DNA of 64,000 nucleotides from Escherichia phage DK-13, in the sequence record MT611523.1, one strand, 5' to 3'. Each line of letters opens with the position of its first letter. The first letter of the stretch is position 1. Under the pieces are notes generated by a model. It did not search any database and had not been told where the DNA came from. It saw only the letters and a list, made by a program, of their open reading frames with translations. Positions 18,732 to 50,932 of this stretch are shown piece after piece. The position numbers and the translations under genes were made by a program.

Positions 18732-18811
18732 AAGCATATCATCGGTTCTACGGACTCCTCAGAGCTCCTCCAGCGACCTAAATACATTTATTGATGAATC
18801 ATATTACCTAG

Positions 18812-27510: not shown

Positions 27511-27599
27511 AATCTCTCACTTTTGATGTTATAAATATCATTATAAATTAGACCCATTATACTTTCTTTCTCTGAAAGGAATTAATAGTCACAAAGGGG

Positions 27600-27640
27600 T
27601 CTAGAACCATTATACCACAATTTTATTTGAAGCAAAAAGG
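27600..27640 (-). promoter_or_regulatory. Middle (MotA-box) promoter upstream of rnlB
   Basis: Minus strand reads TTGCTTCA-N13-TATAAT-GGTTCTAGACCCC (approximate coordinates). Confidence 0.5.
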
Positions 27641-27641
27641 G

Positions 27642-27905
27642 TCAGAATTTTACATACAGCATTGGCTTGGCTTCTTGCCAATCATAATTCCAGGTAAATG
27701 ATGTAAATTTTTCTGCTCGCAGAAAATCAGATATCTTCGCGCGGTTTCCTTCTTCATACTCTTTTTCAGAAACTGCCATATTAACAGCATCTTTGCCATT
27801 CTCGGCGGCGGCAATAGCCACTTTGCGAAATATAGCAATAAAGTCATTTGCAACTTTATCTTGGGATTCTTTTGCGATTTGACGTAGTTCTTCTGCGAAT
27901 GTCAT
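27642..27905 (-). CDS. Hypothetical protein (24.2-like position)
   Basis: 87 aa ORF, synteny only. Confidence 0.45.
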   Translation of the reverse strand: MTFAEELRQIAKESQDKVANDFIAIFRKVAIAAAENGKDAVNMAVSEKEYEEGNRAKISDFLRAEKFTSFTWNYDWQEAKPMLYVKF

Positions 27906-28105
27906 TTCTTCACCTTTTTGTTATTCAAACGTTTACGATAAACAATCTTTTCTTTTGCTTTAAATTTAGCTTTGGCCTGTTCTACATCAACCCAGGCCTT
28001 TGCCATCTCTTTAGCAGTCCCGCCTAATACCTTGGCAATTTCAATAAATGTCATGCCAGATTCATGCAGAAAATGTACTTTAACCTTATCCATAATGATT
28101 CTCAT
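27902..28105 (-). CDS. Hypothetical small protein with helix-turn-helix-like segment (24.3-like position)
   Basis: 67 aa; GMTFIEIAKVLGGTAKEMAKAW resembles an HTH; basic C-terminus. Confidence 0.45.
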   Translation of the reverse strand: MRIIMDKVKVHFLHESGMTFIEIAKVLGGTAKEMAKAWVDVEQAKAKFKAKEKIVYRKRLNNKKVKK

Positions 28106-28198
28106 GTTGAGTTAGTGAAGCTATCTTAACATGGAATTTTTAACTTGTAAACAGGGTTTTTATGCCAGGCGACGTTTGTACAGTACCATAAAAACAAA

Positions 28199-28220
28199 GG
28201 GACCCGAAGGTCCCTTTTTA
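28199..28220 (-). terminator. Hairpin GGGACC-CGAA-GGTCCC downstream of hoc
   Basis: Stem-loop flanked by A/T runs. Confidence 0.6.
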
Positions 28221-28221
28221 A

Positions 28222-29070
28222 TTAATAAACGTAATCGTATATAATACCAGCTTCTAAAGCGGTGCGATGAATAATTCGACCATTACGAGATTCCTGTACA
28301 TCAACCTCTGGATAGTCGGTAATCATTTTTTGAAGTGTATATCGGTGCAAATAATACGGGCTATCTGGAGCATCAGTTTTCCAGTCTTGCTCAGCAAGAG
28401 TCATTTTCTGAATTTCGTCCATAACCCACCAACCACACCAGATATAAGCTGAATTACGAACTGGCAGCGGATGAACGTAAGGTAGTTCGCCCTCTGGTTC
28501 AGGAGCTACTTTAGCCGTGACTGTTACATTACCAGTTTTTGTAACGGTTACAGGGTTATAATCAGTCGCAGATACAACAACAGAAACTTCAATTACCTGG
28601 GAACCTTCGGTGCTTGTATCGATTGCTAGAGTATCCGTGGTGCCAACTACAGGAGAACCGTCTTTCTTCCATGAATAGGCAAAAGTAGCTCCACTCGGTG
28701 CGCCAACTACATCTGCTTTAAATGAAGCTAGGGTGTCTTCCGGAACATTAATTGATTCTGGGGTTAATGTCACAGAAACACCAGACATTGTTTTATTCTG
28801 GATAGTTAAAGTTGTTTCGGCTTCAGCTGTTTCTGGTTCGCCGTCCGCTGGTGTAGTTGTTGCAACAACTTTAATAGTCTTACTGCCTGCTGGACCAACA
28901 GCAACATAATCCATTGCAGCAGTCACAGAAGATTGAGGAACGCCATCAACGGTCCAGACAAATGATTCGGTACCTTCAGCTGCAGCACCGGAACCGGTCG
29001 CAGTGAAATTGGTTGTTGCTCCAATAACGGCCGTAGCCGCCAAAGGAGCAATAGTTACGGTATAAGCCAT
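28222..29070 (-). CDS. hoc: Highly immunogenic outer capsid protein Hoc (shortened)
   Basis: C-terminal region matches recalled T4 Hoc (VTVTKTGNVTVTAKVAPEPEGELPYVHPLP...WCGWWVMDEIQKMT); 282 aa versus 376 in T4. Confidence 0.8.
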   Translation of the reverse strand: MAYTVTIAPLAATAVIGATTNFTATGSGAAAEGTESFVWTVDGVPQSSVTAAMDYVAVGPAGSKTIKVVATTTPADGEPETAEAETTLTIQNKTMSGVSVTLTPESINVPEDTLASFKADVVGAPSGATFAYSWKKDGSPVVGTTDTLAIDTSTEGSQVIEVSVVVSATDYNPVTVTKTGNVTVTAKVAPEPEGELPYVHPLPVRNSAYIWCGWWVMDEIQKMTLAEQDWKTDAPDSPYYLHRYTLQKMITDYPEVDVQESRNGRIIHRTALEAGIIYDYVY

Positions 29071-29079
29071 AATAAACCC

Positions 29080-29745
29080 TTATTTTAAAGTGACAAAAGA
29101 TGAGTTACGAGTTTCTCGTACTAGAACAGACCCATTACGATTGATGTAATAAATCAAACTGAATAGAGTTTGGTGTGCGGTGGGATGTGGGAAAGCAGTT
29201 GGACGTTCTTTCCAATCTGGAGTCTCGGCAATCCACTGATAAATCCACCATGGAACAGTACAGAATCCAGGGTTCTTACCAATAAGCATAAGATTTGGAC
29301 TAAAGTTTTTTGGCAGAGCAAATACAGGTTTTTCAGATTCGATAACCTTAGCAACAGCAGCTTCGAACTTTTCTTCGACAAAAGGAACATCTTCTTCAAC
29401 CACAACAACTGGTTCTTCGATTTCAACAACTTCAACCTTTGCTTCGGTTGGAGCATCAAATAAGAGTTTAGCTTCTTCTTTAGCTGACTCATCGCCATCA
29501 AATTTAGCACCTGACAATTCATCATCGGCATCGATAAGGTCAGTGATGCTCAGGCCTTCATTATCATCAGGCATAGGCATGTCAGCAAATGCTTTAAGTC
29601 CTGCTTCCAGGTCAGCCAACATATTATCAAAGGTTTTTGTTTTCTTAACATCAACACCAAGTGATGCTGCATATTCGGCTAATTTTTCTTTGGCTTCTTT
29701 TTTCTCGAGGACACGAATTTCCTCAATGTAGTTCTTGTCAATCAT
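29080..29745 (-). CDS. inh: Putative inhibitor of prohead protease Inh
   Basis: 221 aa acidic protein immediately upstream of hoc; synteny. Confidence 0.5.
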   Translation of the reverse strand: MIDKNYIEEIRVLEKKEAKEKLAEYAASLGVDVKKTKTFDNMLADLEAGLKAFADMPMPDDNEGLSITDLIDADDELSGAKFDGDESAKEEAKLLFDAPTEAKVEVVEIEEPVVVVEEDVPFVEEKFEAAVAKVIESEKPVFALPKNFSPNLMLIGKNPGFCTVPWWIYQWIAETPDWKERPTAFPHPTAHQTLFSLIYYINRNGSVLVRETRNSSFVTLK

Positions 29746-29763
29746 GATGAACCTCGGTTAGTG

Positions 29764-29771
29764 TATAAATA
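29764..29771 (+). promoter_or_regulatory. Late promoter TATAAATA upstream of uvsW
   Basis: Exact octamer about 30 nt upstream of uvsW ATG. Confidence 0.55.
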
Positions 29772-29799
29772 TAGATATATTTATTACCTTGGAATCATC

Positions 29800-31299
29800 A
29801 TGGATATTAAAATCAACTTTCTAAATTTTAGTCACGTGCATGTTGAATGTGAAGATGGAATCTTCTACGAACTCCGTGATTACTTCAGCTTCGAAGCTGA
29901 AAACTATCGCTTCAATCCAAAGTTCAAGCAGGGAGTTTGGGACGGACGTATCCGCCTCCTGGATTACAATCGTAAATTACCATACGGTTTGGTTAATCAA
30001 ATTAAAAAGTTCGCTGACCAGTTTGGCTATTCATTCTGGATTGACCCGCAAATCACCGAGAAAGAAGAAATCTCTCGCGAAGAATTCAACAAATGGGTTG
30101 AGTCAAAAGAAATCTATTCAGGCAATACCAAGATAACTCCTCATTGGTATCAATCTGACGCCGTATATGATGGTCTGGTCAACAGAAGAAAGATTCTGAA
30201 CTTACCTACGTCTGCAGGTAAAAGCCTCATCCAGGCGCTTCTGGCGCGATATTATCTCGAGAACTATGAAGGCAAGGTGCTTATCCTTGTTCCTACAACT
30301 GCGCTTGTTGACCAGATGATTAATGACTTTGTTGATTATCGGCTTTTCCCTCGTGCAGCTTGTCTGGGTATTCGTTCCGGGACTAAACGCGATTCTGATG
30401 CGATGATTTATGTATCGACTTATCAGACGGCTGTAAAACAACCTAAAGAATGGTTTGAACAGTTTGGCCAGTTTATGAATGACGAATGCCACATGGCTAC
30501 AGGTAAATCGATTTCGACGGTTATCGAAGGCCTTACGAATTGCATGTTTAAATTTGGTCTGTCAGGTTCACTCCGTGATGGCAAAGCCAACCTTATGCAA
30601 TATATGGGTCTGTTTGGTGATATCTTTAAACCAGTATCAACATCTAAATTAATGGAAGATGGCCAGGTTACTGACCTTAAAATAAATAGTATTTTCCTTC
30701 GTTACCCTGATGAATTCACCGTTAAAATGAAAGGTAAAACTTATCAGGATGAAATCAAGGTAATTACAAAAGCTACACGCAGAAATAAATGGGTAACAAA
30801 CCTTGCCCTCAAGCTTTCTAAAAAAGATGAAAACGTCTTTTTGATGTTTAAGAATATCGAGCACGGTAAATCGATGTTTGAAATGATTAAGGAAGCTGGT
30901 CATGAAAAAGTGTATTATGTTTCTGGGGAAGTCGATACCGAAACTCGTAATGCTCTGAAGGTCATGGCAGAGAATGGAAAGGGAATTATTGTTGTAGCTT
31001 CATATGGTGTATTCTCGACGGGGATTTCCGTTAAAAACCTCCATCATATTATTTTCGCTCACCCAGTCAAGTCAAAGGTAATTGTACTCCAGACAATTGG
31101 CCGCGTGCTTCGAAAACATGAATCCAAATCACAAGCAAACGTTTTTGATATCGTTGACGATATGGGTGTTAAACCTAAATCGGCAAATGCTAAAAAGAAA
31201 TATGTTCATTTGAACTTTGCCCTAAAGCATGGCCTTGAACGTATACAAAGATATGCTGATGAACGGTTTAACTATGTAATTAAACAGGTGGAAATTTGA
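29800..31299 (+). CDS. uvsW: UvsW DNA/RNA helicase
   Basis: Start MDIKINFLNFSHVHVECEDG matches recalled T4 UvsW; Walker A LPTSAGKS, DECH box. Confidence 0.9.
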   Translation: MDIKINFLNFSHVHVECEDGIFYELRDYFSFEAENYRFNPKFKQGVWDGRIRLLDYNRKLPYGLVNQIKKFADQFGYSFWIDPQITEKEEISREEFNKWVESKEIYSGNTKITPHWYQSDAVYDGLVNRRKILNLPTSAGKSLIQALLARYYLENYEGKVLILVPTTALVDQMINDFVDYRLFPRAACLGIRSGTKRDSDAMIYVSTYQTAVKQPKEWFEQFGQFMNDECHMATGKSISTVIEGLTNCMFKFGLSGSLRDGKANLMQYMGLFGDIFKPVSTSKLMEDGQVTDLKINSIFLRYPDEFTVKMKGKTYQDEIKVITKATRRNKWVTNLALKLSKKDENVFLMFKNIEHGKSMFEMIKEAGHEKVYYVSGEVDTETRNALKVMAENGKGIIVVASYGVFSTGISVKNLHHIIFAHPVKSKVIVLQTIGRVLRKHESKSQANVFDIVDDMGVKPKSANAKKKYVHLNFALKHGLERIQRYADERFNYVIKQVEI

Positions 31300-31991
31300 A
31301 TTATCAAAAAATATATGATGATTTAATTGGGAGCCGAAAGGCTTCCAAACCAATTGGATATACGGAATCTCACCATATTATTCCAGAATGTATGGGTGGA
31401 CCTGATACACAAGAAAACAGAGTCAACCTTACTCCAGAAGAACATTTCGTTGCGCATAAATTATTGGCCAAAATTCATCCTAATCATTACGGTCTTATAA
31501 AGGCCGTCATTGCTATGGGTATGAGCTCTCGAACACATCAACGACAATTTAATAAATCGTATGGATGGGAGCGTAGACAAATGTCAGTTCTTCAAACTGG
31601 TGAAGGTAATCCTTTTTATGGTAAGCACCATACTGAAGAACATAAAGAATATATGAGCCAATTATTAAAGGGTCGCAAAATAACTTGGGCCGATAAAATA
31701 TCTGCGACAAAGAAAGCGAATCCGTATAAATACTCTCAAGCACAATGTCAAGCTATATCTGAAAGAAATAAAGGTGAAGGTAATTGGATGTATGGTAAAT
31801 CACATACACCAGAAGCATCAAAGAAAATTTCAGATAAAGCAAAAGAACGTTATAAGGACCCATCCAAAAATCCTGCCGCTAAGAAAGTGGTTTTAAACGG
31901 GATTGAATATGGTTCGATGAAGCAAGCTTCTGTAGCAACGGGGCTTTCTTTATATAAAATCAGAAATTTAATTAAACAGGTGGAAATATAA
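31296..31991 (+). CDS. HNH homing endonuclease, Mob-like
   Basis: YTESHHIIPECMGG HNH core; repeated NxxYGKxHTxE modules; apparent TTG start preceded by AGGTGG. Confidence 0.85.
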   Translation: MNYQKIYDDLIGSRKASKPIGYTESHHIIPECMGGPDTQENRVNLTPEEHFVAHKLLAKIHPNHYGLIKAVIAMGMSSRTHQRQFNKSYGWERRQMSVLQTGEGNPFYGKHHTEEHKEYMSQLLKGRKITWADKISATKKANPYKYSQAQCQAISERNKGEGNWMYGKSHTPEASKKISDKAKERYKDPSKNPAAKKVVLNGIEYGSMKQASVATGLSLYKIRNLIKQVEI

Positions 31992-32218
31992 TGAAATCCT
32001 TCGAAGAAATTATGTACGAAGCATCAATTGAAGGCTTTATGGCTAAGATTGGTTCCTGTCAGACCATGGACGGTCTGAAGGAGTTGGAAGGCTATTATAA
32101 GAAACGCAGCAAAGAAGCTGAACTGAAAGATTCCGATGATATCAGTGTTCGCGATGCTCTTGCCGGTAAACGCGCCGAGCTTGAGGATATGGACGACGAA
32201 GAAGACGAAGATTTCTAA
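31991..32218 (+). CDS. uvsW.1: UvsW.1-like small acidic protein
   Basis: 75 aa; TAATG overlap with upstream gene; synteny. Confidence 0.65.
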   Translation: MKSFEEIMYEASIEGFMAKIGSCQTMDGLKELEGYYKKRSKEAELKDSDDISVRDALAGKRAELEDMDDEEDEDF

Positions 32219-32275
32219 ATAAAAAGGCCCCAACCAAAAGGAAGGGGCAAAACCAAAAATGGTTAACAACACTAG

Positions 32276-32443
32276 CTAAATTAAAAGTTGGGTCTCGTTC
32301 AGTTGCTCTTCTGTATTTTCCGTAACTGGCAAACTCTGAACATAATTATAACAGGCGCCCGGATGCACCGGACCTTGGTCTGTATCCACAACCAATGCAG
32401 AATCGATTGGAGTTTTACAGACAACACAAATCTTATCTGACAT
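32276..32443 (-). CDS. Small hypothetical protein (uvsY.-2 position), about 55 aa
   Basis: My own translation, below the ORF-track size cut-off: MSDKICVVCKTPIDSALVVD...; synteny. Confidence 0.4.
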   Translation of the reverse strand: MSDKICVVCKTPIDSALVVDTDQGPVHPGACYNYVQSLPVTENTEEQLNETQLLI

Positions 32444-32582
32444 GATTGTCTCCTCAGTTAAACTTACATATCTATTTAGTGCTCTTCATAATAGCAGCAC
32501 GAGCTTTCATCTCATTAACAATTTCGGTTATTCGGTTTGCAGAGATAACCATCTCGTCGAGAATCTTACTAATATTTTTCAT

Positions 32583-32816
32583 TTAATTTTCCTTAAAGTA
32601 TCTCATACCAGTATCTATTCCCATATTGTGAGAATAGAACGCATCATCGATGTATCCTGCAAATTTACCTTTAACATAGATAACATCTTCACCACAAGGG
32701 TGGTCAGCGCAGATACGAATATCTGCACGATTCAATTTCCATTCCTTCATCATATACTTAATTTCTTCTTCGAACTCTTCGTCTTGGTTAAACGCATCGT
32801 CGATAGAATATCGCAT
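32583..32816 (-). CDS. Hypothetical protein (uvsY.-1 position)
   Basis: 77 aa; TAATG overlap with uvsY. Confidence 0.55.
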   Translation of the reverse strand: MRYSIDDAFNQDEEFEEEIKYMMKEWKLNRADIRICADHPCGEDVIYVKGKFAGYIDDAFYSHNMGIDTGMRYFKEN

Positions 32817-33250
32817 TACTTGCCCGCCTCAAATTGTCTTATTTCTAACATATGTTTAAGTGCGAAACTTCGTGACTTAACACCATCTAATGCAGCGCTA
32901 CAGAAGTCCTGGAGCAGTGTCCAATACTGAATTGACGTATCAATCTTCAGTACGCTTGAATCTGCGGCCATGACTGTTTTCAATTCTGACTTCTCGTACA
33001 CATCCATGCATACTTCTTCCCCTGGGTCACCCCTTCCTGTATAATGGTCTAGTCGTTTTTTCAGTGCAGTTTTCTTCTGAATCTCAAGACGCATTATTTC
33101 TTTCTTGCAGTTGGTATACAATCTCAACCATTTGCTATGCAACAAAACGTTGTTTTGTGTTTCATATTGAAGTTGTGTACCATCAATTTTTAAATCTGCA
33201 TCTAACTCATCCTGAAAGACTTCTAACTTATATTCAATCTCTGTTTTCAT
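32816..33250 (-). CDS. uvsY: Recombination mediator UvsY
   Basis: QLQYETQNNVLLHSKWL...GRGD...KSRSFALKHMLEIRQFEAGK matches recalled T4 UvsY; MotA-type promoter upstream. Confidence 0.85.
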   Translation of the reverse strand: MKTEIEYKLEVFQDELDADLKIDGTQLQYETQNNVLLHSKWLRLYTNCKKEIMRLEIQKKTALKKRLDHYTGRGDPGEEVCMDVYEKSELKTVMAADSSVLKIDTSIQYWTLLQDFCSAALDGVKSRSFALKHMLEIRQFEAGK

Positions 33251-33269
33251 AATGTATCCAATGTAAGGG

Positions 33270-33312
33270 TCTAGAACCATTATACAGCCATAAAATTAAA
33301 GCATTAACCGTT
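33270..33312 (-). promoter_or_regulatory. Middle (MotA-box) promoter upstream of uvsY
   Basis: Minus strand reads AATGCTTTA-N12-TATAAT-GGTTCTAGACCC. Confidence 0.55.
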
Positions 33313-33693
33313 TTGACTTAGCTGAATCCTGATTTGTTCGAGGGTATCAGGGTCATCAACAATGCTGAACTGAACTGTTACGATAATGGAGTTATCATCA
33401 TACATAGGGACAACTGCCACCTGTAGATTGCTTATCCTTGGTTCGAAGTTCCGCACCGCGGAGACGATGTTGCGTTTAATGGTATCTGTGATTAATGGAG
33501 TGATATTCTCGAAAAGCTGATTACTTATATCACATCCAAATTCAGGCATAAAAGGCCTTGACCCTTTTCTTGTGGTGATTATTCCCAAAAGACTGTTCTT
33601 AACAGACCTTGCACCAGTTACTTTAGCAACGTCTTTATCCCAACTTGTAGATAAGTCGGGAGACACATCGCTATACATTTTGTTTATATTCAT
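33304..33693 (-). CDS. gp25: Baseplate wedge protein gp25
   Basis: 129 aa; gpW/gp25-like; synteny. Confidence 0.85.
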   Translation of the reverse strand: MNINKMYSDVSPDLSTSWDKDVAKVTGARSVKNSLLGIITTRKGSRPFMPEFGCDISNQLFENITPLITDTIKRNIVSAVRNFEPRISNLQVAVVPMYDDNSIIVTVQFSIVDDPDTLEQIRIQLSQNG

Positions 33694-34317
33694 TTACATA
33701 AACTTAAAGAATTCTTTAAGCCCCTTAATTACATGGACAGAATGTGCTCCGCACTCGCAAGAGATAGGAATAGCCATTTGGACCTGTGGCTTGAGAAGTT
33801 CTTCTGTTAGTGCATTTATATCATCGAGGGTAATTGCATTGTACAGGTCCTCGATTTCAGCTTCATTTAAGTCATCAACAACGATGCGCTCACCGCCTTC
33901 CGTGATAATATATTCGATACAACAAGCAATCATTTTTCCTTTATCACCATCTTCAAACAGTCCAGGATAACGGAATTTAATTTTAAACGCCCCGAAATCA
34001 CGAATAACTTCAGACTCATCCACGATGCTTGCGCGACTTATAGTCACAGGAATATCTTGTTCCTTTCCGCACTCACATACCCATGTATGCTCGACGTTAA
34101 CAGCTCCGAGACTATTTGCCCAGAGATTAATAAGAAGCAGCTCGGCTTCCTGTTTGTTTAACCCTTTAGCATCAGTGCATTTATTAAGCAGTTCAATTAT
34201 TGCAGGTTCCATACGCTTTTCTAATTTTGCCTGAAGCAAATCTTTGTATTCGCGCAAGGTAAAAGCCCTACAATTTATAGTTTTATTTTTAATTTGGACA
34301 ATAAATTCATAAGTCAT
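33694..34317 (-). CDS. gp26: Baseplate hub protein gp26
   Basis: 207 aa from ATG with GGAG RBS (track ORF extends to a TTG at 34350); T4 gp26 is 208 aa. Confidence 0.75.
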   Translation of the reverse strand: MTYEFIVQIKNKTINCRAFTLREYKDLLQAKLEKRMEPAIIELLNKCTDAKGLNKQEAELLLINLWANSLGAVNVEHTWVCECGKEQDIPVTISRASIVDESEVIRDFGAFKIKFRYPGLFEDGDKGKMIACCIEYIITEGGERIVVDDLNEAEIEDLYNAITLDDINALTEELLKPQVQMAIPISCECGAHSVHVIKGLKEFFKFM

Positions 34318-34335
34318 AATTTGCTCCTTTACTGT

Positions 34336-34346
34336 ATTTATAAATA
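34336..34346. promoter_or_regulatory. Palindromic divergent late promoter TATTTATAAATA between gp26 and gp51
   Basis: TATAAATA on plus strand and its reverse complement on minus strand overlap by 5 nt. Confidence 0.55.
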
Positions 34347-34370
34347 TCAATAAAGATAAAAGGGGATTCT

Positions 34371-35123
34371 ATGGCCAATATCGTAAGATGTGAAATGCCA
34401 GACGGAGTTCATCGTTTCAAACCGTTTACAGTCGCTGATTACCGTGATTTACTGCTTGTGCGAAACGACATGAACAACAAACCCGTCGAAGAACAAAAAC
34501 AATTATTAGACGAACTGTTGGAAGATTATTTTGGAGAGTATCCAAAAGCATGGAGGCCTTACATATTTCTGAAGGTATTCACTTCCTCTATCGGTAAGAC
34601 AAAAGTCCCGGTAGCGTTTGAATGTCAAAAATGTAAAAAGACAAAGCAGACTTTGTTTAACCTGAATCAGGGTCCATTAGTAAATCCAACGATGGAAACC
34701 GCCGGGATAAAAATACAATTTAAGTTCCCTGAAGTGGAATATAAAGATAAGTCAGAGCTTGTCTTGAATACCATCCAGACTGTCGAAGACTCGGAACAAA
34801 AATACAATTGGGAAGACCTTCCTGAAGAAACAAAGATGCAGGTTATCGATGCAATTGATATAGAGAGTCTCGAAGCACTCCTTAAGAAAATGCATTCGGT
34901 TTATATTCCATTTACATATGGCTGTTGTGAAAAGCACAAAACCGAATACACTGACCTGCTTGACGTCTTTAAGCTTATCCTTAACCCGGATGAAGTCTTT
35001 GTATTTTATCAAATTAACCACTTGCTGGTAAAGAATCAATATTCGCTGGATAGCATCATGCATATGATTCCTATTGAACGAGGTATTGCTTTATCACTAG
35101 TTGAGAAGGACTTGAAAAAATGA
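34371..35123 (+). CDS. gp51: Baseplate hub assembly protein gp51
   Basis: 250 aa; divergent from gp26 across a late promoter; synteny. Confidence 0.8.
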
Positions 35124-36289: not shown

Positions 36290-36761
36290 TAAAGAGATTC
36301 ATGTTCCTAAGCTTGGTCTCAAGCATCACAATCTGATTAAAAACGAACCTAACCCATACGCTGCATTAAGAAAGATTATGCAATCGATATTCCCTAATCT
36401 TACAGCAGCCGAATCCGACTTTGTATCTTTACATCTCCTGGAATTCAATGGTAAGCTAAAAGACAAACGCGAGATTAATGGATTTACATATAAGCTGGAT
36501 GATGTTTATATCTGTCAGCGCCTTGAATTTTCTTATCAAGGAAAGACATTTAAATTCCGCTCCAATAAACCGTATGAAGAATTCGGACCAGTTGACAATC
36601 TCCTGGAGACCCTTTATCTTGGGGAAGATGTTCCAGACTTTCTGGATATGCCTGCTTTTGTTGCTAAGTGGGCAGACGATATCACAAGCACATTAGCAAT
36701 CCCGGGTCCGAATGGTCCTGTTAAGGGGTTACTGAAAATAATGGAACTCCTAAATGAATAA
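36243..36761 (+). CDS. gp28: Baseplate hub distal subunit gp28
   Basis: 172 aa from internal ATG (T4 gp28 is 177 aa); overlaps 3' end of gp27. Confidence 0.7.
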
Positions 36762-38499: not shown

Positions 38500-38507
38500 G
38501 GAATAAC

Positions 38508-40561: not shown

Positions 40562-40565
40562 AAAG

Positions 40566-40590
40566 AAAGGGACCCGAAGGTCCCTTTTTT
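40566..40590. terminator. Bidirectional hairpin AAGGGACC-CGAA-GGTCCCTT after gp54
   Basis: 8-bp stem and T7 run. Confidence 0.7.
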
Positions 40591-40879: not shown

Positions 40880-40942
40880 TTTGTTTTCCTCATGTGCAAT
40901 TGATATGAACATTGTATCGCACTTCCTTGTGCTTGTAAACCC

Positions 40943-43003: not shown

Positions 43004-43035
43004 AATAGGTTCCTTATAAAATATGATGTATTTAT

Positions 43036-43058
43036 ACTAAAAAAGGGCCGAAGCCCTT
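43036..43058 (-). terminator. Hairpin GGGCC-GAAG-GCCC between ligase and alt
   Basis: Stem-loop with flanking A/T runs. Confidence 0.55.
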
Positions 43059-43061
43059 TTG

Positions 43062-44594
43062 TTATTTTAATCCAGTCTTTGACCAGTCGCCAAATACATC
43101 TTCGAATGTGTCTGCATGGTCTTTATCAAAACGGAACCCTTTAATAATCGGCAGGAACAATGCAACCGTATTATCTTTACGAGTCTCGGAAGTCAACCAA
43201 CCATTACATTCACAGTCGGCAATCATTCCAACCAATTCACCTTTACGTGCTTTAACCATCAAGGCTTCACGGTCCATTTCATGACGCTCCTCAATCGGAA
43301 TAGTAACCCATTTTTTGGTTTTCTTATCTTTGACTTGAGTTGTGTCTTTAAAACCAGAACCACAGTTATTCGTAATCTTACCACAAGAAGAACGAAGCAC
43401 CACACCGCCAATCTTATTCGGGTCTTTATCGTGCTCGTAATATCCAATGATTTCCATTGCAATGTCAATTACTTCTTTGAACTTATACAGGTTCTTTGAG
43501 CGCTTGTTTTCCCAAATCGATGCCATGTTTTTAAGGATAATACCTTCAAGGCCTTCATCTACATATTTCTTATAGATAACCTTCGCTTCATCGAGATTGT
43601 TAACAACATGGTTTTCAATCAGAATCATGCGGTCGAAACCATGTAGCACCACGTTATCTGCAATCATCTTTTCCAGAACAGCAAAACGCACATCATATTT
43701 CAGCGGATTGAGAATCTTAACATCAGAATAGACTTCAATCAGTGGAACATAATCCCAAACCTGGAATTTCATACAAGAAGCTTCTGCTGCAGAAATAGTT
43801 CCTTTCAATGATTTGTTTGCCAGACCATTTGAAAAGGTTCTTGATTCAGCAGTTTCTTTTGCAGGAGCAATCTCATCTGAATCGTCAAAAAGGAAGCCCA
43901 AACCGTCATTCTGGGGAGCTATTTTCTGTTCGTGATATACTAACTCGCCATCAATTAAAACGCCCTCAGGATGTCTCTCACGCGCTTCACGGGTGGCTTC
44001 AATCAATTCCTTCTTAAGGAGGTCAAGCTTGAGGTATTCGTTACCAGCTCGGGATAACAATCGAACATCATCCAACTCATCGCCACGAACTTCTGCAAAA
44101 CATCGGGCGCCGTCGGCTTTCAATTGTGCAAAGGCCGGGAACTTAATGTTCTTAGCAATGCCAGCTTCATCATAAGAAGAAGCGAGCATCTGCTGTTGTT
44201 CAGGAATTAAACCTTTCCAAACCTTATTCGCAATTGATACAGACGCACCACATTCCAGGTCACGCATCATCACGCGGCGCAAGACTTCAACATCTGCTTT
44301 TTTACCATCTGCAATATAGCCAGATAATTCCTCGATTGCAGCATTACCTGTTAATTTGCGCGCGGCTAATGTGAATTCTATAAAGTCAAGCATATCATCA
44401 ATATTCAACATGCCAAAGCTTTGAGACGTTGTACCAGGTTTAGGCCATTTCTTTATATAGAACTGGATGCCTTTGGAATATGTCAAACGATACACACGTT
44501 TGAGGGTTTCATTGTCAGAATACGATTCCAGAATAGCTTGTTTCTCTTTAGTGGAATCGGTTGCAGCAATTTCATTTAAAATATCTAAAATCAT
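43062..44594 (-). CDS. gp30: ATP-dependent DNA ligase gp30
   Basis: Long near-identical runs to recalled T4 DNA ligase, including adenylation motif KADGARC. Confidence 0.95.
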   Translation of the reverse strand: MILDILNEIAATDSTKEKQAILESYSDNETLKRVYRLTYSKGIQFYIKKWPKPGTTSQSFGMLNIDDMLDFIEFTLAARKLTGNAAIEELSGYIADGKKADVEVLRRVMMRDLECGASVSIANKVWKGLIPEQQQMLASSYDEAGIAKNIKFPAFAQLKADGARCFAEVRGDELDDVRLLSRAGNEYLKLDLLKKELIEATREARERHPEGVLIDGELVYHEQKIAPQNDGLGFLFDDSDEIAPAKETAESRTFSNGLANKSLKGTISAAEASCMKFQVWDYVPLIEVYSDVKILNPLKYDVRFAVLEKMIADNVVLHGFDRMILIENHVVNNLDEAKVIYKKYVDEGLEGIILKNMASIWENKRSKNLYKFKEVIDIAMEIIGYYEHDKDPNKIGGVVLRSSCGKITNNCGSGFKDTTQVKDKKTKKWVTIPIEERHEMDREALMVKARKGELVGMIADCECNGWLTSETRKDNTVALFLPIIKGFRFDKDHADTFEDVFGDWSKTGLK

Positions 44595-44603
44595 AATCAC
44601 CTC

Positions 44604-44882
44604 TTAGTCGTTGGCTCTATTATATGCCACATCTTCCAAAAGCAAATCCAGACGCTTATGATAAGTGAACACAAATTTAGTCGCCCCATCCGGTTTCATT
44701 TTAGTCAGGAAGTGAACATAGATAAATCCTTGCTCAACACATTCCCGCCAGATTGGGTTATCCTTGGCCGGATTAATATCAAACGAGTAATTATGATTCA
44801 CATGACGAATAAACTGGTTAACATGACCGTAATCCATCGTGGTGGTTGGGCCACGGTCTGAAATAGTATGAACGACAAACAT
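44604..44882 (-). CDS. Hypothetical protein (30.1 position)
   Basis: 92 aa, TGATG overlap with upstream gene. Confidence 0.5.
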   Translation of the reverse strand: MFVVHTISDRGPTTTMDYGHVNQFIRHVNHNYSFDINPAKDNPIWRECVEQGFIYVHFLTKMKPDGATKFVFTYHKRLDLLLEDVAYNRAND

Positions 44883-45706
44883 CAATTACCCCCTTGTCCG
44901 CCGGTCGGTTGATTGTACCAATATTCAATGCCAGTACCTACACGCTGGCCATATTGATATGGATATGCTGGATTATATCCAGGAGTCCACGGTTGACCAG
45001 GCTGCCAGCCTTGTTGCATTTGTTGTTGAAGACGGCGAGTTTCACGAAACAGCTCATCCAGTTTACGGAGTTCATCTGGGGTGAATTCTGGTTTGACCGG
45101 TTCATCTTTGTGTTTCAGTTTAAGCTGTCCAGCAACATCGTCCCAGTTAAAAACTTTGGAAGCCGTCTTAGGAATAGCATCACGTTCGCCACGGGCCATC
45201 CAATAAACCGGGACTTCAAGGATTTCACTCGCATGGTCGCAATGGTGTGCAAGGTCATCAATATAACAAATGACATTATATTTGGTCTTCGCTTTCTGGA
45301 ATAACTCTTCTTTAGAGGCTGTATGGCCACACATCATCACTTCTTTAAATGCGCCAGGGAACAAAGCATTCAGGTTGAATTGACGATTCAGACGGGCATC
45401 AATGGAATCACCCAGAGCTGTAACGGCCACAAAATCATATTGCTCTTTGAGGTTATTAATAACCCTTAGCGCATCTGTGTAAGGAGACAAATAGCGAATA
45501 AAATCTGAACAGTTATATTTCTCAATCAACTGTGCTCCCAACTCTTCATCACAATTGAACAGTTTACCAGGGGTCACAAATTTTTCATCCTGAATCATCT
45601 TAAGGATATGTTCCAGGGGTAAATTATATTTTTGGGCGAAATAAGGCAAGCCAGACTGCCATGACAAACATACGCCATCAATATCTGTTAAAATAACGGG
45701 TTTCAT
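44882..45706 (-). CDS. HAD-superfamily phosphatase / 5'(3')-deoxyribonucleotidase-like protein with Gln/Pro/Tyr/Gly-rich C-terminal tail
   Basis: N-terminal ILTDIDGV (HAD motif I, DxDGV as in NT5C-type nucleotidases); C-terminal 45 aa low-complexity tail. Confidence 0.6.
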   Translation of the reverse strand: MKPVILTDIDGVCLSWQSGLPYFAQKYNLPLEHILKMIQDEKFVTPGKLFNCDEELGAQLIEKYNCSDFIRYLSPYTDALRVINNLKEQYDFVAVTALGDSIDARLNRQFNLNALFPGAFKEVMMCGHTASKEELFQKAKTKYNVICYIDDLAHHCDHASEILEVPVYWMARGERDAIPKTASKVFNWDDVAGQLKLKHKDEPVKPEFTPDELRKLDELFRETRRLQQQMQQGWQPGQPWTPGYNPAYPYQYGQRVGTGIEYWYNQPTGGQGGN

Positions 45707-46161
45707 AATGCATCTCTCAATTGGTTAAGTATGTCAATAAATTCTTGTTCAGTCAATATTGTATCATGAACAGTAAGGTGGCTCGCCATCGAATGCTTTA
45801 AAACTTTGCCCTTTGTAGCTTGTAATGCGTCGCGGAACCCTTTGTTTTGGAGCGCTGCTTCAAAATAAACATTTGTATACAACTCTTTCCATGATGCAGA
45901 GTATCTTGAAAAGGGAATTCCAAGCCAGAAAAGCGTCCCACGGTCCGCAGCTCTTGCATAAGCTCTTCCACTTTGCTGGGCGGCCAATCCGGACATCCCA
46001 AATATACGTTTTTGTTGTTCATGATTTCTCACCTTACACCCTTGTAGGAAGCCTTCAAGACCTCCAAACTGGATGCCATCCATAACAAAAGGCCATTTAG
46101 CAAAGTTACTTAATGCACATGATGGCCATGGGAAATTGCTTCTGATTTCTAACTCAGACAT
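45703..46161 (-). CDS. NADAR / YbiA-family (DUF1768) protein
   Basis: LSNFAKWPFVMDGIQFGGLEGFLQ resembles the conserved core of E. coli YbiA (FSNFAAWPIKVDG...EHYFQ). Confidence 0.65.
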   Translation of the reverse strand: MSELEIRSNFPWPSCALSNFAKWPFVMDGIQFGGLEGFLQGCKVRNHEQQKRIFGMSGLAAQQSGRAYARAADRGTLFWLGIPFSRYSASWKELYTNVYFEAALQNKGFRDALQATKGKVLKHSMASHLTVHDTILTEQEFIDILNQLRDAL

Positions 46162-46366
46162 CTTTGACACTTACTACATCAACGTTTGCCCAATGACCAT
46201 AACCAGGTAGACGGTCTTTAATAGATAATCCACCGTCAGATTTCAGCATTTTAATTGTTTTAGTATATGGTTCAATATTTCGGGCCCATGGACTCACGTC
46301 TGTTACGCGATAAGTAACTTCAACCATTTCTGTGCCCAAAATTTTCTGAATCAGTTTCTTAAACAT
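46154..46366 (-). CDS. Hypothetical protein
   Basis: 70 aa ORF in operon-like array, no recognisable motif. Confidence 0.45.
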   Translation of the reverse strand: MFKKLIQKILGTEMVEVTYRVTDVSPWARNIEPYTKTIKMLKSDGGLSIKDRLPGYGHWANVDVVSVKDV

Positions 46367-46367
46367 A

Positions 46368-46562
46368 TTATCCTCGCCTTAAACATTTGATTACAGACAG
46401 TTCACCGCTCATGCGAACGTCTTCAGTTCCGTCAACCCACAAGACTGCATATGCTTCTTTAATTTGGGTATTGTCTAATTTAAACGCAGGCAGGACCTTT
46501 GAAATCATTCCAGGAATACCCACACCTTTTAACTGAACTGTTTGTGATAAGAATAGTTGCAT
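46368..46562 (-). CDS. Hypothetical protein
   Basis: 64 aa ORF, tight spacing with neighbours. Confidence 0.45.
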   Translation of the reverse strand: MQLFLSQTVQLKGVGIPGMISKVLPAFKLDNTQIKEAYAVLWVDGTEDVRMSGELSVIKCLRRG

Positions 46563-46879
46563 TAGAACCTCATCTGAAAGCCGTGCGATTTAACATTGCC
46601 ACCATAGATGTCAGACGTATTAACTTCACGTGCAGCGCTCGGGTCGATATTGATATCATGGTTGAGCTTAGTGATTGCTAGGGTATCACGACCGTTAACA
46701 GTACGGAATTCTACCGGGCAAACTATATCCGCATAGTTTTTAATGGATTCTTTAGTTGGTTGCTTATCAGCAGGTACACCTGGACCAGCTTTAGAGAAAA
46801 CAACTTCACAGAAATTTTTACGTGTATCAAAGTAAGTAGTCATAAACATAGTATTTTCCTCAAGGGGCTTTCGCCCCAT
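46562..46879 (-). CDS. Hypothetical protein
   Basis: 105 aa ORF; early-type promoter upstream. Confidence 0.45.
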   Translation of the reverse strand: MGRKPLEENTMFMTTYFDTRKNFCEVVFSKAGPGVPADKQPTKESIKNYADIVCPVEFRTVNGRDTLAITKLNHDINIDPSAAREVNTSDIYGGNVKSHGFQMRF

Positions 46880-46934
46880 TTAAGATTAGATATCAAATTC
46901 ATTAAGAACTACATCAAAGATTGCTTCCAGGTGT

Positions 46935-46975
46935 TCAGTATGGAATCATTATGCACTGGACAACCCCTGTTGTAA
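46935..46975 (-). promoter_or_regulatory. Early-type promoter upstream of the 105-aa gene
   Basis: Minus strand reads GTTTAC-N18-CATAATGATTCCATAC, the same downstream element as at 25110-25150. Confidence 0.45.
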
Positions 46976-46991
46976 ACCCTTTATGGAAAAT

Positions 46992-47018
46992 AAAAAAGGG
47001 ACTCCGAAGAGTCCCTGA
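46992..47018 (-). terminator. Hairpin GGGACTC-CGAAG-AGTCCC downstream of the 53-aa basic protein gene
   Basis: Stem-loop with A-run. Confidence 0.55.
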
Positions 47019-47020
47019 AC

Positions 47021-47182
47021 TTATGCTTTCGGCTTACCAAAGCAAGCTGCATCGGCACGCAATACCGCACGAGCACGAGCCTGAAGTTTATCAGTTACCT
47101 GATTGATTCGCTTGTTGGACGCACGCTTGTAACCAGCGCGTTTGGAGGAGCCATCAACAACTTTAACTTCTTTCTTAGCCAT
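47021..47182 (-). CDS. Small basic protein, 53 aa
   Basis: My own translation, below ORF-track cut-off: MAKKEVKVVDGSSKRAGYKRASNKRINQVTDKLQARARAVLRADAACFGKPKA; AAGAGA RBS; hairpin terminator immediately downstream. Confidence 0.45.
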   Translation of the reverse strand: MAKKEVKVVDGSSKRAGYKRASNKRINQVTDKLQARARAVLRADAACFGKPKA

Positions 47183-47479
47183 ATTAAATTCTCTTTAAAA
47201 ATAGAATGCAGGACTTATTGACATTGCCTGCGCAAGCCCTCGAAGGGAACATTAGGTTTCGGATATTTAACGACAGGATAACCATAAACCTCGTCATCAT
47301 ACCAACCACGACTTAGACAGATAACCTTTTTCTGACGCGTGATAGTACAAAATACATTCAAGAGGTACACCATAAAACTGTCGGGGTCTTAAAACTATAA
47401 CGATTCGCAAATCATTAATCAGACAGTTCGATGGCTCCTCGATTTTCTAGCCGCACTAAGGTAGCGAATCACCTAAAAC

Positions 47480-47734
47480 TTACTTCAGGGTTACGACAAA
47501 ATGACGAACAGCTTTACGGGCAGCAGATGCCAGCGGCTTAGCAAATTTCAGTTCATCTTTTGCTTCGAGCACTGCGCGAAGGTCGGTTTGAATCGGGTTA
47601 AGATGTTTGAAATACTGCAGAATTTCCAGTGCTTCGGCTTCAACATCAATAGATGCGCCGTAGTTTTCGTGACCGTTATTCCATGCAGTGCGTTGCAGTT
47701 CAAGAGCGTGTTGTAATTGTTTGTTTAAAGACAT
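47480..47734 (-). CDS. rIII: Putative lysis-inhibition accessory protein RIII
   Basis: 84 aa from internal ATG (T4 RIII is about 82 aa); position adjacent to gene 31. Confidence 0.5.
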   Translation of the reverse strand: MSLNKQLQHALELQRTAWNNGHENYGASIDVEAEALEILQYFKHLNPIQTDLRAVLEAKDELKFAKPLASAARKAVRHFVVTLK

Positions 47735-47905
47735 TTTAGAAGCCTCAATATGAGGTGAATATTTGGTGGACACGTTCTTCTGAATTTCACTTCCTTTCGG
47801 CAAGTCTCTCAGTTGTAGTCCACCGTTTAGGATTAGCTAACCCCATACACCAGCAAAGCTCTGTATGACATCAACCAATCCATATTATTATTTATAACGC
47901 TAATT

Positions 47906-48253
47906 TTACTTATAAAGACAAGGAACAGCTTTATAATGACAGGTCACAAATTTCTGCTTAACTTCTTTAGCCTGCTTAAGTCCCAGAGCAACCAGAGGAT
48001 GTGGAACGTTTGCAATCTTGCCAACCGGAAGAGGAGTCAAATCACCTACTTCACAGAAACCTTCAGGAACATCTGGACCAACCGAAAATACTTCACACAT
48101 CTCCGGGATTTCACCCTGATGAAGTTTTCCGATAACGATACCTGATGCCGTAGTTTCTTCATCACCAGCTTGCTTTGGCTCAGAAACCAAAATAATATAT
48201 TCACCTACTGCTTTAATTGGTAATTCCATATTTAATCCATGTTGTTTGGTCAT
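47906..48253 (-). CDS. gp31: Co-chaperonin gp31 (GroES analogue)
   Basis: [23 protein letters not shown]...[17 protein letters not shown] matches recalled T4 gp31. Confidence 0.9.
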
Positions 48254-48284
48254 GTATTAATAATAACACGCACCGTTTGAAGCA

Positions 48285-48584
48285 TTAAAGGACAAGCAGT
48301 GTCTCGGTCTGCAGTCCATTCACGGAAATCAATTTATTGAAACAGAATGAACGCCATTCATTAAGCTTGGTATCAAATACCCGGATATAGCTAACTGGTT
48401 CTTTATGAGCTTCTGGTCCAGGGGCCTGGATTTCTTTATACGGTAGCAGGTCCAGGTCGCGAGTACAAGTCATACGACGAACGCTGCCATCTGCTTTTTC
48501 AAACAGAACTTCATGAAAGCCAACAGACAAGATAGTCTTGACTTTTTCACGAAGACGAATTGTTTCTTGTTCAGTTAAAATCAT
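48285..48584 (-). CDS. Hypothetical protein (31.1 position)
   Basis: 99 aa; synteny. Confidence 0.5.
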   Translation of the reverse strand: MILTEQETIRLREKVKTILSVGFHEVLFEKADGSVRRMTCTRDLDLLPYKEIQAPGPEAHKEPVSYIRVFDTKLNEWRSFCFNKLISVNGLQTETLLVL

Positions 48585-48586
48585 AA

Positions 48587-48820
48587 TTATTCCAAAACAG
48601 TTTTAATAGTGGTTGCATTACGCTCTTTTAGAGCACGCAATAGATGGTGACAATTTTCAAGAATAGGCACCGTTTTATAGTTCGTTTCGGCGCGAACCCA
48701 CTCGGATTTATAGTACGATTTCCAGCGAGAGAAAAAGTACTTTTTGTATTCTACTGAATAGGCTACTAAGCTTTCGCCTTTTGAGTTTAGCCCTGAAAAT
48801 TTAACTAGACGAAATTTCAT
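48587..48820 (-). CDS. Hypothetical protein (31.2 position)
   Basis: 77 aa; synteny. Confidence 0.5.
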   Translation of the reverse strand: MKFRLVKFSGLNSKGESLVAYSVEYKKYFFSRWKSYYKSEWVRAETNYKTVPILENCHHLLRALKERNATTIKTVLE

Positions 48821-49401
48821 TATTCACCACAAAATTCGTTAATGTTTTCCCAGTTCAATTTGTCTAGACTACGCTTAGGCACATTGAACACCTCAATTCC
48901 TGCATTCTTCAGGATATCATCCCAACCAGGAATATTCTTATCATACGTTTCACAGTAAACCAATTTCTTGATTCCTGATTGAGAAATTGCCTTTGCACAA
49001 TCAGGGCAAGGAGAAAGCGTCACATACATAGTAGCGCCTTCAATTGACGAACCCATTCTGGCTGCGAACAGAATTGCATTAAGCTCGGCATGAATTTCGT
49101 TGTTCTTTGACCAGGCCGAATGAGCTTCGCGATGAGCTTTCGCCAATACAAAACGGTCAACCTTACTGAATCTCACACATTCTGGCTTGTGACCAGGGAC
49201 GAGAACAGGTTTAGGTTTATTCAGTAACCAACCTTGCTCTTCCGCATGCTCGCAACAGTTGACCCCACCTGCAGGGGAACCATTATACCCTGTAGAAATA
49301 ATGCGGCCATTCTTTTCAATAACAGCTCCCACTTTCCAGGAGCAACATTTGGATTCTTGAGATACAAGGTATGCGATTTGCAGAACAGTAGTTGGTTTCA
49401 T
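48820..49401 (-). CDS. cd: dCMP deaminase
   Basis: 193 aa as in T4 Cd; zinc-binding deaminase motifs CEHAE / HAELNAI and PCPDCAK. Confidence 0.9.
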   Translation of the reverse strand: MKPTTVLQIAYLVSQESKCCSWKVGAVIEKNGRIISTGYNGSPAGGVNCCEHAEEQGWLLNKPKPVLVPGHKPECVRFSKVDRFVLAKAHREAHSAWSKNNEIHAELNAILFAARMGSSIEGATMYVTLSPCPDCAKAISQSGIKKLVYCETYDKNIPGWDDILKNAGIEVFNVPKRSLDKLNWENINEFCGE

Positions 49402-49737
49402 TTACATCACCACGAGATAATTGGTTTTAATAGTTTCAACACGATATAATTCATGTCGCAATTTAGTAATGCTCTTAACATGTGTTGTAATTATACTATC
49501 ACCATCGCTGAAGCGTTTTTTCTTATCGTCAAAAATCACCCCAAACATTCGCTCACCAATTTCTACAGGAGCTTCTGTGATAACAACCGCATCATAATTA
49601 CTTGGGTGAATACTTTTAAACAGAGCATCATTCGCAAGCGTTACTTTGATAAATGCAGTTGTTTCTGGGTCCAACTTACGATGGTCACCTAAATCATTTT
49701 TAAGTGATTCTTTGAAAATATCCATTAAATTCATCAT
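49402..49737 (-). CDS. Hypothetical protein
   Basis: 111 aa; cd-proximal small gene. Confidence 0.5.
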   Translation of the reverse strand: MMNLMDIFKESLKNDLGDHRKLDPETTAFIKVTLANDALFKSIHPSNYDAVVITEAPVEIGERMFGVIFDDKKKRFSDGDSIITTHVKSITKLRHELYRVETIKTNYLVVM

Positions 49738-49979
49738 TGAATATACACTCGCTGCGCTTCAACCAGACCATCAGAACCCAATTTCAGTTGGGTCAACTGG
49801 TCACCACCTTTTAGAGTAATTTTCGGATTAATGACAATCATAAAACTGCGTGCAGATTCCTGAATAACTTGCAAAGTCGCAGCAGGGAATCGCTGTGATA
49901 CGCGGTTAATCATCTCTTGAGCAAATGCCTTCACTTTTTCGTGGAACTCTTCAACAGTAATTGGGGTTTCGCTAAGCAT
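49734..49979 (-). CDS. Hypothetical protein
   Basis: 81 aa, overlapping start/stop with neighbours. Confidence 0.5.
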   Translation of the reverse strand: MLSETPITVEEFHEKVKAFAQEMINRVSQRFPAATLQVIQESARSFMIVINPKITLKGGDQLTQLKLGSDGLVEAQRVYIQ

Positions 49980-50521
49980 CAGATTGTCTCCTGTTTTACT
50001 TGTTTAACGATAGAAGCTTTTGTGATATCGCCTTTGATAATATAGCAATCTTCAACAGTACCACGGTTTAACAGACGCTCTGCTTCGCCTTCCGCATATT
50101 CTTTTGACACATGACGAGAGTTAATCTCAATCTTGCCATTTTTAACCACAAGCAATTTCCAAACTGATGCAAGTTTTACTGGCACAGGTTCAACTTCTGG
50201 CTTAACACCAACTTCTGCCTGGATGAAATAATCAAATTCATCAGACAATGGACCAGCAGAAACAAACATTGCCCCATGATGCCTGTTCTGTGTGCCAGAT
50301 ATTTTTGGCAAATCCACAAAATCATTTTCATCAATCAAACGAATCTCACAAACTTTTTTACCGCCGCTGATGTCATCGGATAAAATCTTAACTTCAAACG
50401 GAGTCATACCGATGTATCCAGCAATTTGGTAATTGGCTGCCCAGCCTCCGGCAATAAACTGTTTTTTGGCATTTTCAGATACAAATTTGTAAAACTTACC
50501 TTCTTCAAAGAAATCGCTCAT
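49979..50521 (-). CDS. Hypothetical protein
   Basis: 180 aa, no motif recognised. Confidence 0.5.
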   Translation of the reverse strand: MSDFFEEGKFYKFVSENAKKQFIAGGWAANYQIAGYIGMTPFEVKILSDDISGGKKVCEIRLIDENDFVDLPKISGTQNRHHGAMFVSAGPLSDEFDYFIQAEVGVKPEVEPVPVKLASVWKLLVVKNGKIEINSRHVSKEYAEGEAERLLNRGTVEDCYIIKGDITKASIVKQVKQETI

Positions 50522-50581
50522 TTTGTTTTCCTCATGTGTTGATGAAATTCATTATACACCATCCATGGTGAAAGTAAACAC

Positions 50582-50860
50582 TTAAATTGCTTCGACAACT
50601 ACCGTTTGTTTCTGGAAGTCCATTTTGCATGAAATAGCCAAAATATGGTTATCAATTTTAAATGGAACAATTGCAAATGCTGCACCAGGCGTGAGTTGAA
50701 CAGTGATTGCATCAACTGCATCCGGGAACATGATTTCCAGAATAGCAGACAAACGACCGTGCACTTTTAGTTCAGTCGACACGTCGACGCTTTCGTATAG
50801 ATAATCAGATACAATCTGACTAAAAAGTACTTTAACAATTTCAGAATATGTAGGAAACAT
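50582..50860 (-). CDS. Hypothetical protein
   Basis: 92 aa; MotA-type promoter just upstream. Confidence 0.5.
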   Translation of the reverse strand: MFPTYSEIVKVLFSQIVSDYLYESVDVSTELKVHGRLSAILEIMFPDAVDAITVQLTPGAAFAIVPFKIDNHILAISCKMDFQKQTVVVEAI

Positions 50861-50889
50861 TTCTTTTCTCGCTTAGTTATTGGGGTATC

Positions 50890-50932
50890 CAAAGGACCTA
50901 GACCCCATTATACCATAAAATTTTTAAAGCGT
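50890..50932 (-). promoter_or_regulatory. Middle (MotA-box-like) promoter upstream of the 92-aa gene
   Basis: Minus strand reads ACGCTTTA-N12-TATAAT-GGGGTCTAGG. Confidence 0.45.

Follow-up and report, generated by a model that had tools for sequence, protein, structure and literature searches.

A conserved extension downstream of the -10 element in a subset of predicted MotA-type middle promoters of Escherichia phage DK-13 and other T-even-type phages

The stretch of Escherichia phage DK-13 analysed here (record MT611523.1; 64,000 nucleotides (nt), hereafter the window) covers the late-gene block, starting with gene 7, continues through the early/middle region around nrdA/td, and carries four sites at which a predicted middle promoter of the MotA/AsiA-dependent type runs on, past its -10 hexamer, into a further conserved sequence, here called the block. 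The sequence places the window in the genus Gaprivervirus, in the VR7/SP18/RZ group, and the Gaprivervirus genomes vB_EcoM_RZ (RZ), UPEC01, SP18, VR20 and VR7 are 96-98% identical to it over 25 kb. RZ is the closest complete genome (97-98% identity; a window position is approximately the RZ position minus 91,265), and its annotation includes a MotA-like activator and the anti-sigma factor AsiA, the genes for both of which lie outside the window.

A sequence-only reading of the window had proposed four or more minus-strand sites sharing a MotA box, a 12-13 nt spacer, TATAAT and a near-identical block at the predicted transcript start. All four were located, two with exact and two with variant blocks (Table 1). 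In each, a MotA box precedes a sigma-70 -10 element (TAnnnT, here always TATAAT) by 12 or 13 nt, inside the 11-13 bp expected of the type, and these sequence criteria place all four in the MotA-dependent middle promoter family, as had been claimed. All start and leader positions assume the usual start 7 nt after the -10 hexamer, although at the cd.3 site the predicted start is the eighth nucleotide. The MotA box of the uvsY site lies within the 3' end of gene 25, and the uvsY start codon follows the predicted start by ~22 nt. The cd.3 block differs from GGTTCTAGACCC by one additional G and by GGTCC in place of GACCC, and its leader contains CCCCAATAAC; this copy is kept as TATAATGGGTCTAGGTCC in VR7 and in an IMG/VR contig (locus L047) that is 94% identical over 220 nt. 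At the rnlB locus, four Gapriverviruses are identical up to the end of GGTTCTAGACC and lose identity immediately beyond. T4 has no counterpart of the rnlB promoter copy and no space for one at that locus, and no intergenic room at the locus of the cd.3 copy. The degenerate second copy in the rnlB leader reads TATAGTGGGTCTAA in RZ and TATAGAGGGTATAA in VR7/VR25-like genomes; it lacks conservation and probably represents a duplicate that has decayed.

Table 1. Block promoters and related features in the window and in T4. Window positions count from the first nucleotide of the 64,000-nt stretch; + and - denote strands.
Feature	Genome	Position	Strand	MotA box	Spacer (nt)	TATAAT	Block	Predicted +1	Sequence	Basis
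Predicted middle promoter upstream of rnlB (RNA ligase 2)	Window	27597..27634	-	TGCTTCA 27634-27628	13	27614-27609	27608-27597	A 27602	GGTTCTAGACCC	Motif and relatives
Predicted middle promoter upstream of uvsY, positional ortholog of T4 PuvsY/oriF	Window	33267..33303	-	TGCTTTA 33303-33297	12	33284-33279	33278-33267	A 33272	GGTTCTAGACCC	Motif and synteny
Predicted middle promoter upstream of cd.3	Window	50894..50931	-	CGCTTTA 50931-50925	12	50912-50907	50906-50894	A 50899	GGGGTCTAGGTCC	Motif and relatives
Predicted antisense middle-type promoter between 19.1 and 19	Window	18701..18753	-	TGCTTTT 18736-18730	13	18716-18711	18710-18701	A 18704	GGTTCTACGG	Motif and inverted repeat
Degenerate second copy in rnlB leader	Window	27548..27561	-	None					TATAATGGGTCTAA	Sequence
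PuvsY, annotated oriF	T4	115383	-						TATAATGAATCTAAGTCCATCCAATAAC	
Antisense inside gene 34, annotated oriG	T4	153023	-						TATAATGGTCCCAGAGAGTTCC	
Before nrdC.7	T4	53337	-						TATAATGGTTCTAAGCCC	
Antisense between srd and modA	T4	11885	+						TATAATGAATCTAAGTCCTTCC	
Antisense between genes 3 and 2	T4	75988	+						TATAATGGGTCTAAGTCCCTTCC	

The antisense site at 18716 has only GGTTCTA in common with the other copies. Its block forms one arm of a 10-bp perfect inverted repeat (CCGTAGAACC / GGTTCTACGG), pairing with 18744-18753 and thereby enclosing the whole antisense promoter, and the plus-strand late-promoter word TATAAATA lies inside this repeat at 18723-18730, over the junction of MotA box and spacer. 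In a VR20-type genome the site persists as a conserved island between flanks that are strongly diverged or deleted. The same late-promoter word occurs inside the rnlB leader at 27530-27537 (+), antisense to 24.2/24.3, and 20 times in the window as a whole against 4.7 expected, with 17 of the 20 on the plus strand.

As a free-floating word the 12-mer is not significantly enriched in the window, with five matches at up to two mismatches against 2.5 expected. Placed immediately 3' of TATAAT, however, GGNTCTA occurs four times in the window against ~0.01 expected and five times in RZ against 0.03 expected, so that what is non-random about the block is its position. Two further promoters in the window have a MotA box and TATAAT without the block, one before gene 30 (44624, -; TATAAT-AGAGCC) and one in the cd region (49495, -; TATAAT-TACAAC), and the block is therefore the mark of a subset and not of all middle promoters. 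Promoters with a MotA box and TATAAT fall into two classes, one with a G(G/A)NTCTA start and the other with an unrelated A/T-rich start.

A matrix covering -15 to +9 was built from 34 non-identical family members, with the MotA box excluded, and used to scan the RZ and T4 genomes, which were put together from annotated stretches. At a threshold of at least 16.8 bits, five sites were recovered in T4 and eight in RZ. Because the seed sites contributed to the matrix, high scores are in part circular. This does not apply to the MotA box, which stands at the correct spacing in 13 of the 13 hits, whereas the next hits (14.8 bits or less) lack one. The highest-scoring of these in RZ, at 14.8 bits, corresponds to TATAATGGTCTAGTCG at 33040-33057 (+) in the window, a block-like sequence on the opposite strand in uvsY without an upstream MotA box.

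All five T4 members have orthologs in RZ, which carries the rnlB, cd.3 and 19.1/19 copies in addition. The block is not special to this phage: its class includes T4 PuvsY/oriF, where the annotated oriF sequence at the uvsY promoter reads TATAATGAATCTAAGTCC, and ori(34)/oriG. Of the five copies in T4, three are antisense with no gene to express, as are four of the eight in RZ. These copies, lying back-to-back with or atop opposite-strand promoters, could act by promoter occlusion, as a roadblock or through antisense RNA. A small antisense RNA was considered and set aside, because the sequence around the antisense copies, to a distance of a few hundred nt, gave no convincing candidate for an intrinsic terminator. 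In RZ, the antisense copy at 22232 (+) diverges from the srd early promoter at 22172 (-).

The logo of the 34 sequences reads TGG-TATAAT-GGKTCTARGKYYTTT, or by position T-15 G-14 G-13, TATAAT, G-6 G-5 K-4 T-3 C-2 T-1 A+1 R+2 G+3 K Y Y T T T. G-6 and G-5 were used to choose the members and the remaining positions were not; among the latter, T-3 is found in 28/34, C-2 in 25/34, T-1 and A+1 in 29/34 each and G+3 in 23/34. Information reaches background past ~+9, giving a conserved extension of ~15 positions, from -6 to +9. Given the predicted start, about half of the block would be untranscribed discriminator, and most of it would lie no further 3' than the start itself. The suggestion that the block is a shared 5' leader fared poorly for this reason, as GGTTCT would be untranscribed and the transcripts would have only ~+1 to +9 in common; in addition, relatives diverge right after GGTTCTAGACC and no common fold was found, the 34 leaders having a mean folding z-score of 0.07, no better than shuffles. 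An Rfam search of the window returned no hit and a tRNA search none either, and with the shuffle-like folding a structured RNA or known RNA family was rejected.

A small open reading frame (ORF) beginning at the ATG in TATAATG was likewise rejected, since this ATG is in the uvsY frame here and in Dhakavirus and its frame is stopped in T4 and in another lineage; ORFs downstream of the gene 3/2 copies are unconserved. RefSeq UvsY of RZ (gp225) has 154 codons, the same as the window ORF (32816-33280, -) that starts at the TATAATG of the promoter. The VR7 UvsY start lies ~10 codons downstream, at ATGAAAACAG (window ~33250), and looks more plausible. Two further features recur in the leaders. The word YCAATAAC is found at ~+15 to +30 in members from three different loci and several lineages (window ~50873-50882; the T4 oriF leader, where it occurs twice; RZ 83676 (+); several IMG/VR loci), and some instances fall in opposite-strand or uvsY coding sequence and may be incidental. 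A purine-rich run followed by [AT]ATAG appears at +32 to +56, with ATAGA present in 11 of 34 leaders against 1.1 expected.

The gap between gene 25 and uvsY yielded the promoter in ~30 T4-like contigs, each lineage having its own version of the block (GGTCCTATGGTT, GGGTCTATGGGTT, GGGTTTACGGGTT, GGTTTTGAGTTCC, GGTTCTAGTTCC and GGCTTTGAGGCTTC), whereas more distant relatives have a terminator in place of the block promoter in this gap; judged by similarity to the 44RR/Aeh1 group, the latter contigs look like Aeromonas-phage types. The antisense copy between genes 3 and 2 is found in Gapriver-, Dhaka- and Tequatrovirus types and several others, and the srd/modA antisense copy is retained where Srd is only 31-47% identical to T4 Srd. 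The presence of the rnlB, cd.3 and 19.1/19 copies varies by lineage. Conservation past the -10 element, as had been proposed, is genuine and non-random, and is maintained at orthologous loci across genera.

Similarity is greater among the copies of a single genome than among orthologs of different genera. At the uvsY, gene 3/2, nrdC.7 and srd/modA loci of three genera, where the locus of the Dhakavirus srd/modA sequence (L045) is assumed, a context check having given no Srd or ModA match, within-genome paralogs share 11.1 of 16 positions, cross-genus orthologs 9.8 and unrelated cross-genus pairs 9.6, and the observed paralog similarity was reached by 2 of 216 within-locus label permutations. 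The lineage-specific flavours lie at +2 to +6 and read AAGTCC in T4, AGACC in the window group and AGGTC in Dhakavirus. Over the first ~9 transcribed bases the copies of a genome are kept alike, whether through gene conversion or through a reader specific to the phage, and this concerted evolution of the +2 to +9 part leaves room for the additional factor that had been envisaged.

One possible explanation of the block is that it is a DNA site, or an RNA 5' tag, for a co-evolving phage-encoded factor that switches this promoter subset on or off. In addition to the paralog similarity, this would suit the form of the block, which in the window is a 10/12 palindrome centred on TCTAGA and in other lineages resembles two tandem GGTYC half-sites; orthologs often resemble GGGTT-ac-GGGTT or GGTC-ctac-GGTC. 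The symmetry is inconsistent, however, since the window has a palindrome, other lineages a direct repeat and T4 neither of the two, and the half-sites vary among the promoters of one genome. Covariation of the half-sites as a direct repeat was rejected as weak, since a half paired with the second half of other promoters scores almost as high (mean 3.41 vs 3.26, P = 0.08; perfect repeats 6 against 2.4, P = 0.02), and no candidate protein emerged. These phages probably carry modified cytosines in their DNA, as T4 does, which narrows the possible binders. A dedicated phage reader is considered improbable.

A second explanation gives the block no separate function and sees in it the conserved core of promoter cassettes that are dispersed and homogenised by recombination in the manner of PeSLs and PmSLs, the mobile T4-type cassettes in which a stem-loop lies upstream of a promoter (Arbiol 2010; Comeau 2014; PMC2839356, PMC4122927). 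PmSLs with MotA-type promoters are known from vibriophage nt-1 (PMC4122927), and the block promoters resemble these cassettes in being dispersed, repeated intergenic promoter motifs with signs of recombination or homogenisation: RZ has eight copies, those at the rnlB, cd.3 and 19.1/19 loci are gained and lost by lineage, the copy at 27561 has decayed, and evolution is concerted. In two other T4-like phages, near-identical sequence of ~50-60 nt or more is repeated at two distant loci, running from the MotA-box region into the leader. In IMGVR_UViG_2974770551 the two loci (L173 and L222) are the PuvsY and gene 3/2 antisense positions, and IMGVR_UViG_2974656882 has a similar pair (L076 and L084); cassettes of this length occur only in other phages. 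The window paralogs, by contrast, have only TATAAT and the block in common, their identity being 1.0 for the hexamer, 0.60 for the block, 0.42 for the spacer and ~0.3 for the flanks. The conserved part also lies downstream of the -10 element, unlike that of PeSLs and PmSLs, and the upstream stem-loop is missing at three of the four sites. None lies at 27614 or 33284, 50912 has only a short 8-bp repeat in the upstream gene, and at 18716 the repeat arms flank the whole promoter with no upstream hairpin; membership of PeSL/PmSL was rejected for want of the upstream stem-loop. Moreover, orthologous copies outlast their decaying flanks over large divergence, and therefore selection appears to act on the sequence itself. 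That the block is a passive passenger of such a cassette is likewise considered improbable.

A third explanation arises from the identity of the T4 members. Two of the five are oriF and oriG, the only T4 origins with defined cis elements, which consist of a middle promoter and a downstream unwinding element and fire through an R-loop. Site 33284 is the syntenic ortholog of the oriF promoter between gene 25 and uvsY, and oriG, which lies within a late gene, is antisense as site 18716 is. The block and a G-poor leader could be the cis signature of R-loop-forming, origin-type middle promoters, whose transcripts would remain hybridised and serve as primers for the leading strand, a mechanism demonstrated for T4 oriF and suggested for oriG. 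The antisense copies are consistent with this, as is the G fraction at +7 to +26, which is 0.08 in block promoters and 0.17 in other T4 and RZ middle promoters. The T4 copies at 11.9, 53.3 and 76.0 kb sit 3-6 kb from oriA (16.8 kb), oriC (near rI.-1, ~59 kb) and oriE (79.4 kb); the chance of pairing them one to one within 5.5 kb is calculated as ~0.002, the threshold having been chosen post hoc. According to a 2010 review, no motif common to the T4 origins was known.

The same review states, however, that heterologous sequence can replace the downstream unwinding element and that oriE relies on an early promoter with no middle promoter nearby. The copy at 53.3 kb is directed away from oriC, T4 oriF and the window copies start without a G cluster of the kind that would favour hybrid nucleation, and the original plasmid screens yielded oriF and oriG only. 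Downstream A+T is no higher than at other middle promoters (~0.70 vs 0.68), and an A+T-rich unwinding element was rejected as the discriminator of the class because composition is equal. An origin-type signature is regarded as unlikely. The broader proposal, that every family member is an R-loop origin cassette and that the block and G-poor leader are the long-sought common cis element of T4-type origins, receives little credence. If it were true, the window would hold origins at 33284, 27614, 50912 and 18716, T4 would have them at oriF, oriG and 11.9, 53.3 and 76.0 kb, and the array-mapped oriA, oriC and oriE would be the three uncharacterised T4 copies.

The favoured explanation, which is given roughly an even chance of being correct, is that the block is a core-promoter extension defining a PuvsY/oriF class of MotA/AsiA-dependent middle promoters in T-even-type phages. 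The anatomy of this class would comprise an extended -10 (TGG), TATAAT and then the G-6 to T-run sequence of the logo, and the upstream half of the block would be read by the host RNA polymerase itself. For E. coli RNA polymerase, rules exist for the discriminator contact of sigma region 1.2, for the core recognition element and for the choice of start site; GG next to the hexamer is favourable for sigma region 1.2, and lambda PR reads GATAAT-GGTTGC-A. The block is similar to promoters following these rules in having GG after the hexamer, a discriminator of 6-7 nt, a pyrimidine-purine start and a frequent +2 G. In the proposed scheme, the GG beside the hexamer would make the discriminator contact with sigma-70 region 1.2, the pyrimidine-purine step 6-7 nt past the hexamer would set the start, and the +2 G would suit the core recognition element; the combined result would be a long-lived open complex and a precise start at promoters without a -35 contact. 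What the sequences show is that the block is present and enriched, strictly coupled to a MotA box, conserved between genera, evolving in concert and free of RNA structure; the contacts with polymerase, the position of the start and the effect on kinetics are the parts of this scheme that we infer.

Several observations weigh against a core-promoter extension. Conservation is much tighter than the E. coli elements demand, with TCTA near-invariant, it extends to +9 and the flavours follow phage lineage, and polymerase contacts leave both the TCTA and the +2 to +9 flavours unexplained. The sequence at +2 to +6 differs by lineage although T4, Gapriverviruses and Dhakaviruses share the E. coli polymerase, and with one host polymerase a pure polymerase optimum should therefore be uniform; the flavours are moreover common to the paralogs within one genome. 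T4 PuvsY has GAA after the hexamer instead of GG(G/T). Finally, the early promoters of the same phage have TATAAT-GA followed by another conserved downstream sequence, and so a G-rich discriminator is not simply the best one. Since that downstream sequence is a different one, the block is specific to the MotA-promoter subset and is not a general trait of strong promoters.

The early promoters (-35 GTGTAC/GTTTAC) have an inverted repeat that brackets the -10 element, in the window at 53240-53300 (-; hexamer 53271), in T4 at 7191 (-) and in RZ at 6089, 17731 and 69890 (-). The repeat arms covary between phages (GGGAGCagagTATAATGCTCCC in the window, GGGACCagagTATAATGGTCCC in T4 and GGGGTCagagTATAATGACCCC in RZ), and the early promoters have downstream words in common, such as CATACTGAGTTACCA and CTATCAACTAC. 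Elsewhere in the window, GGGACC-TTCG-GGTCCC hairpins with T runs occur at ~28200-28225 and 40565-40590, where opposite-strand gene blocks converge, and look like bidirectional terminators.

According to reviews, the published MotA promoter consensus ends at the -10 element (PMC2988021, PMC1524935). The promoters described here share with T4 MotA/AsiA middle promoters the (a/t)(a/t)TGCTT(t/c)A box near -30, the 12-13 nt spacer, TATAAT and often TGn, but form a subset with ~15 further conserved positions. The block, the subclass and its membership are unmentioned in the promoter and origin reviews consulted, and a full-text search with the motif strings gave nothing relevant; the -6 to +9 extension and its subclass may have been described before in primary papers beyond that scope.

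MotA promoters are the textbook case of sigma appropriation, with a consensus taken to end at -10. A conserved subclass would mean either that polymerase under sigma appropriation recognises a longer stretch of the promoter than has been assumed or that these sites have a second job. Both defined T4 origins belong to the subclass, as do antisense promoters that are deeply conserved. The subclass predicts specific new T4 sites, and it may bear on why oriF and oriG act as origins and some 50 further middle promoters do not.

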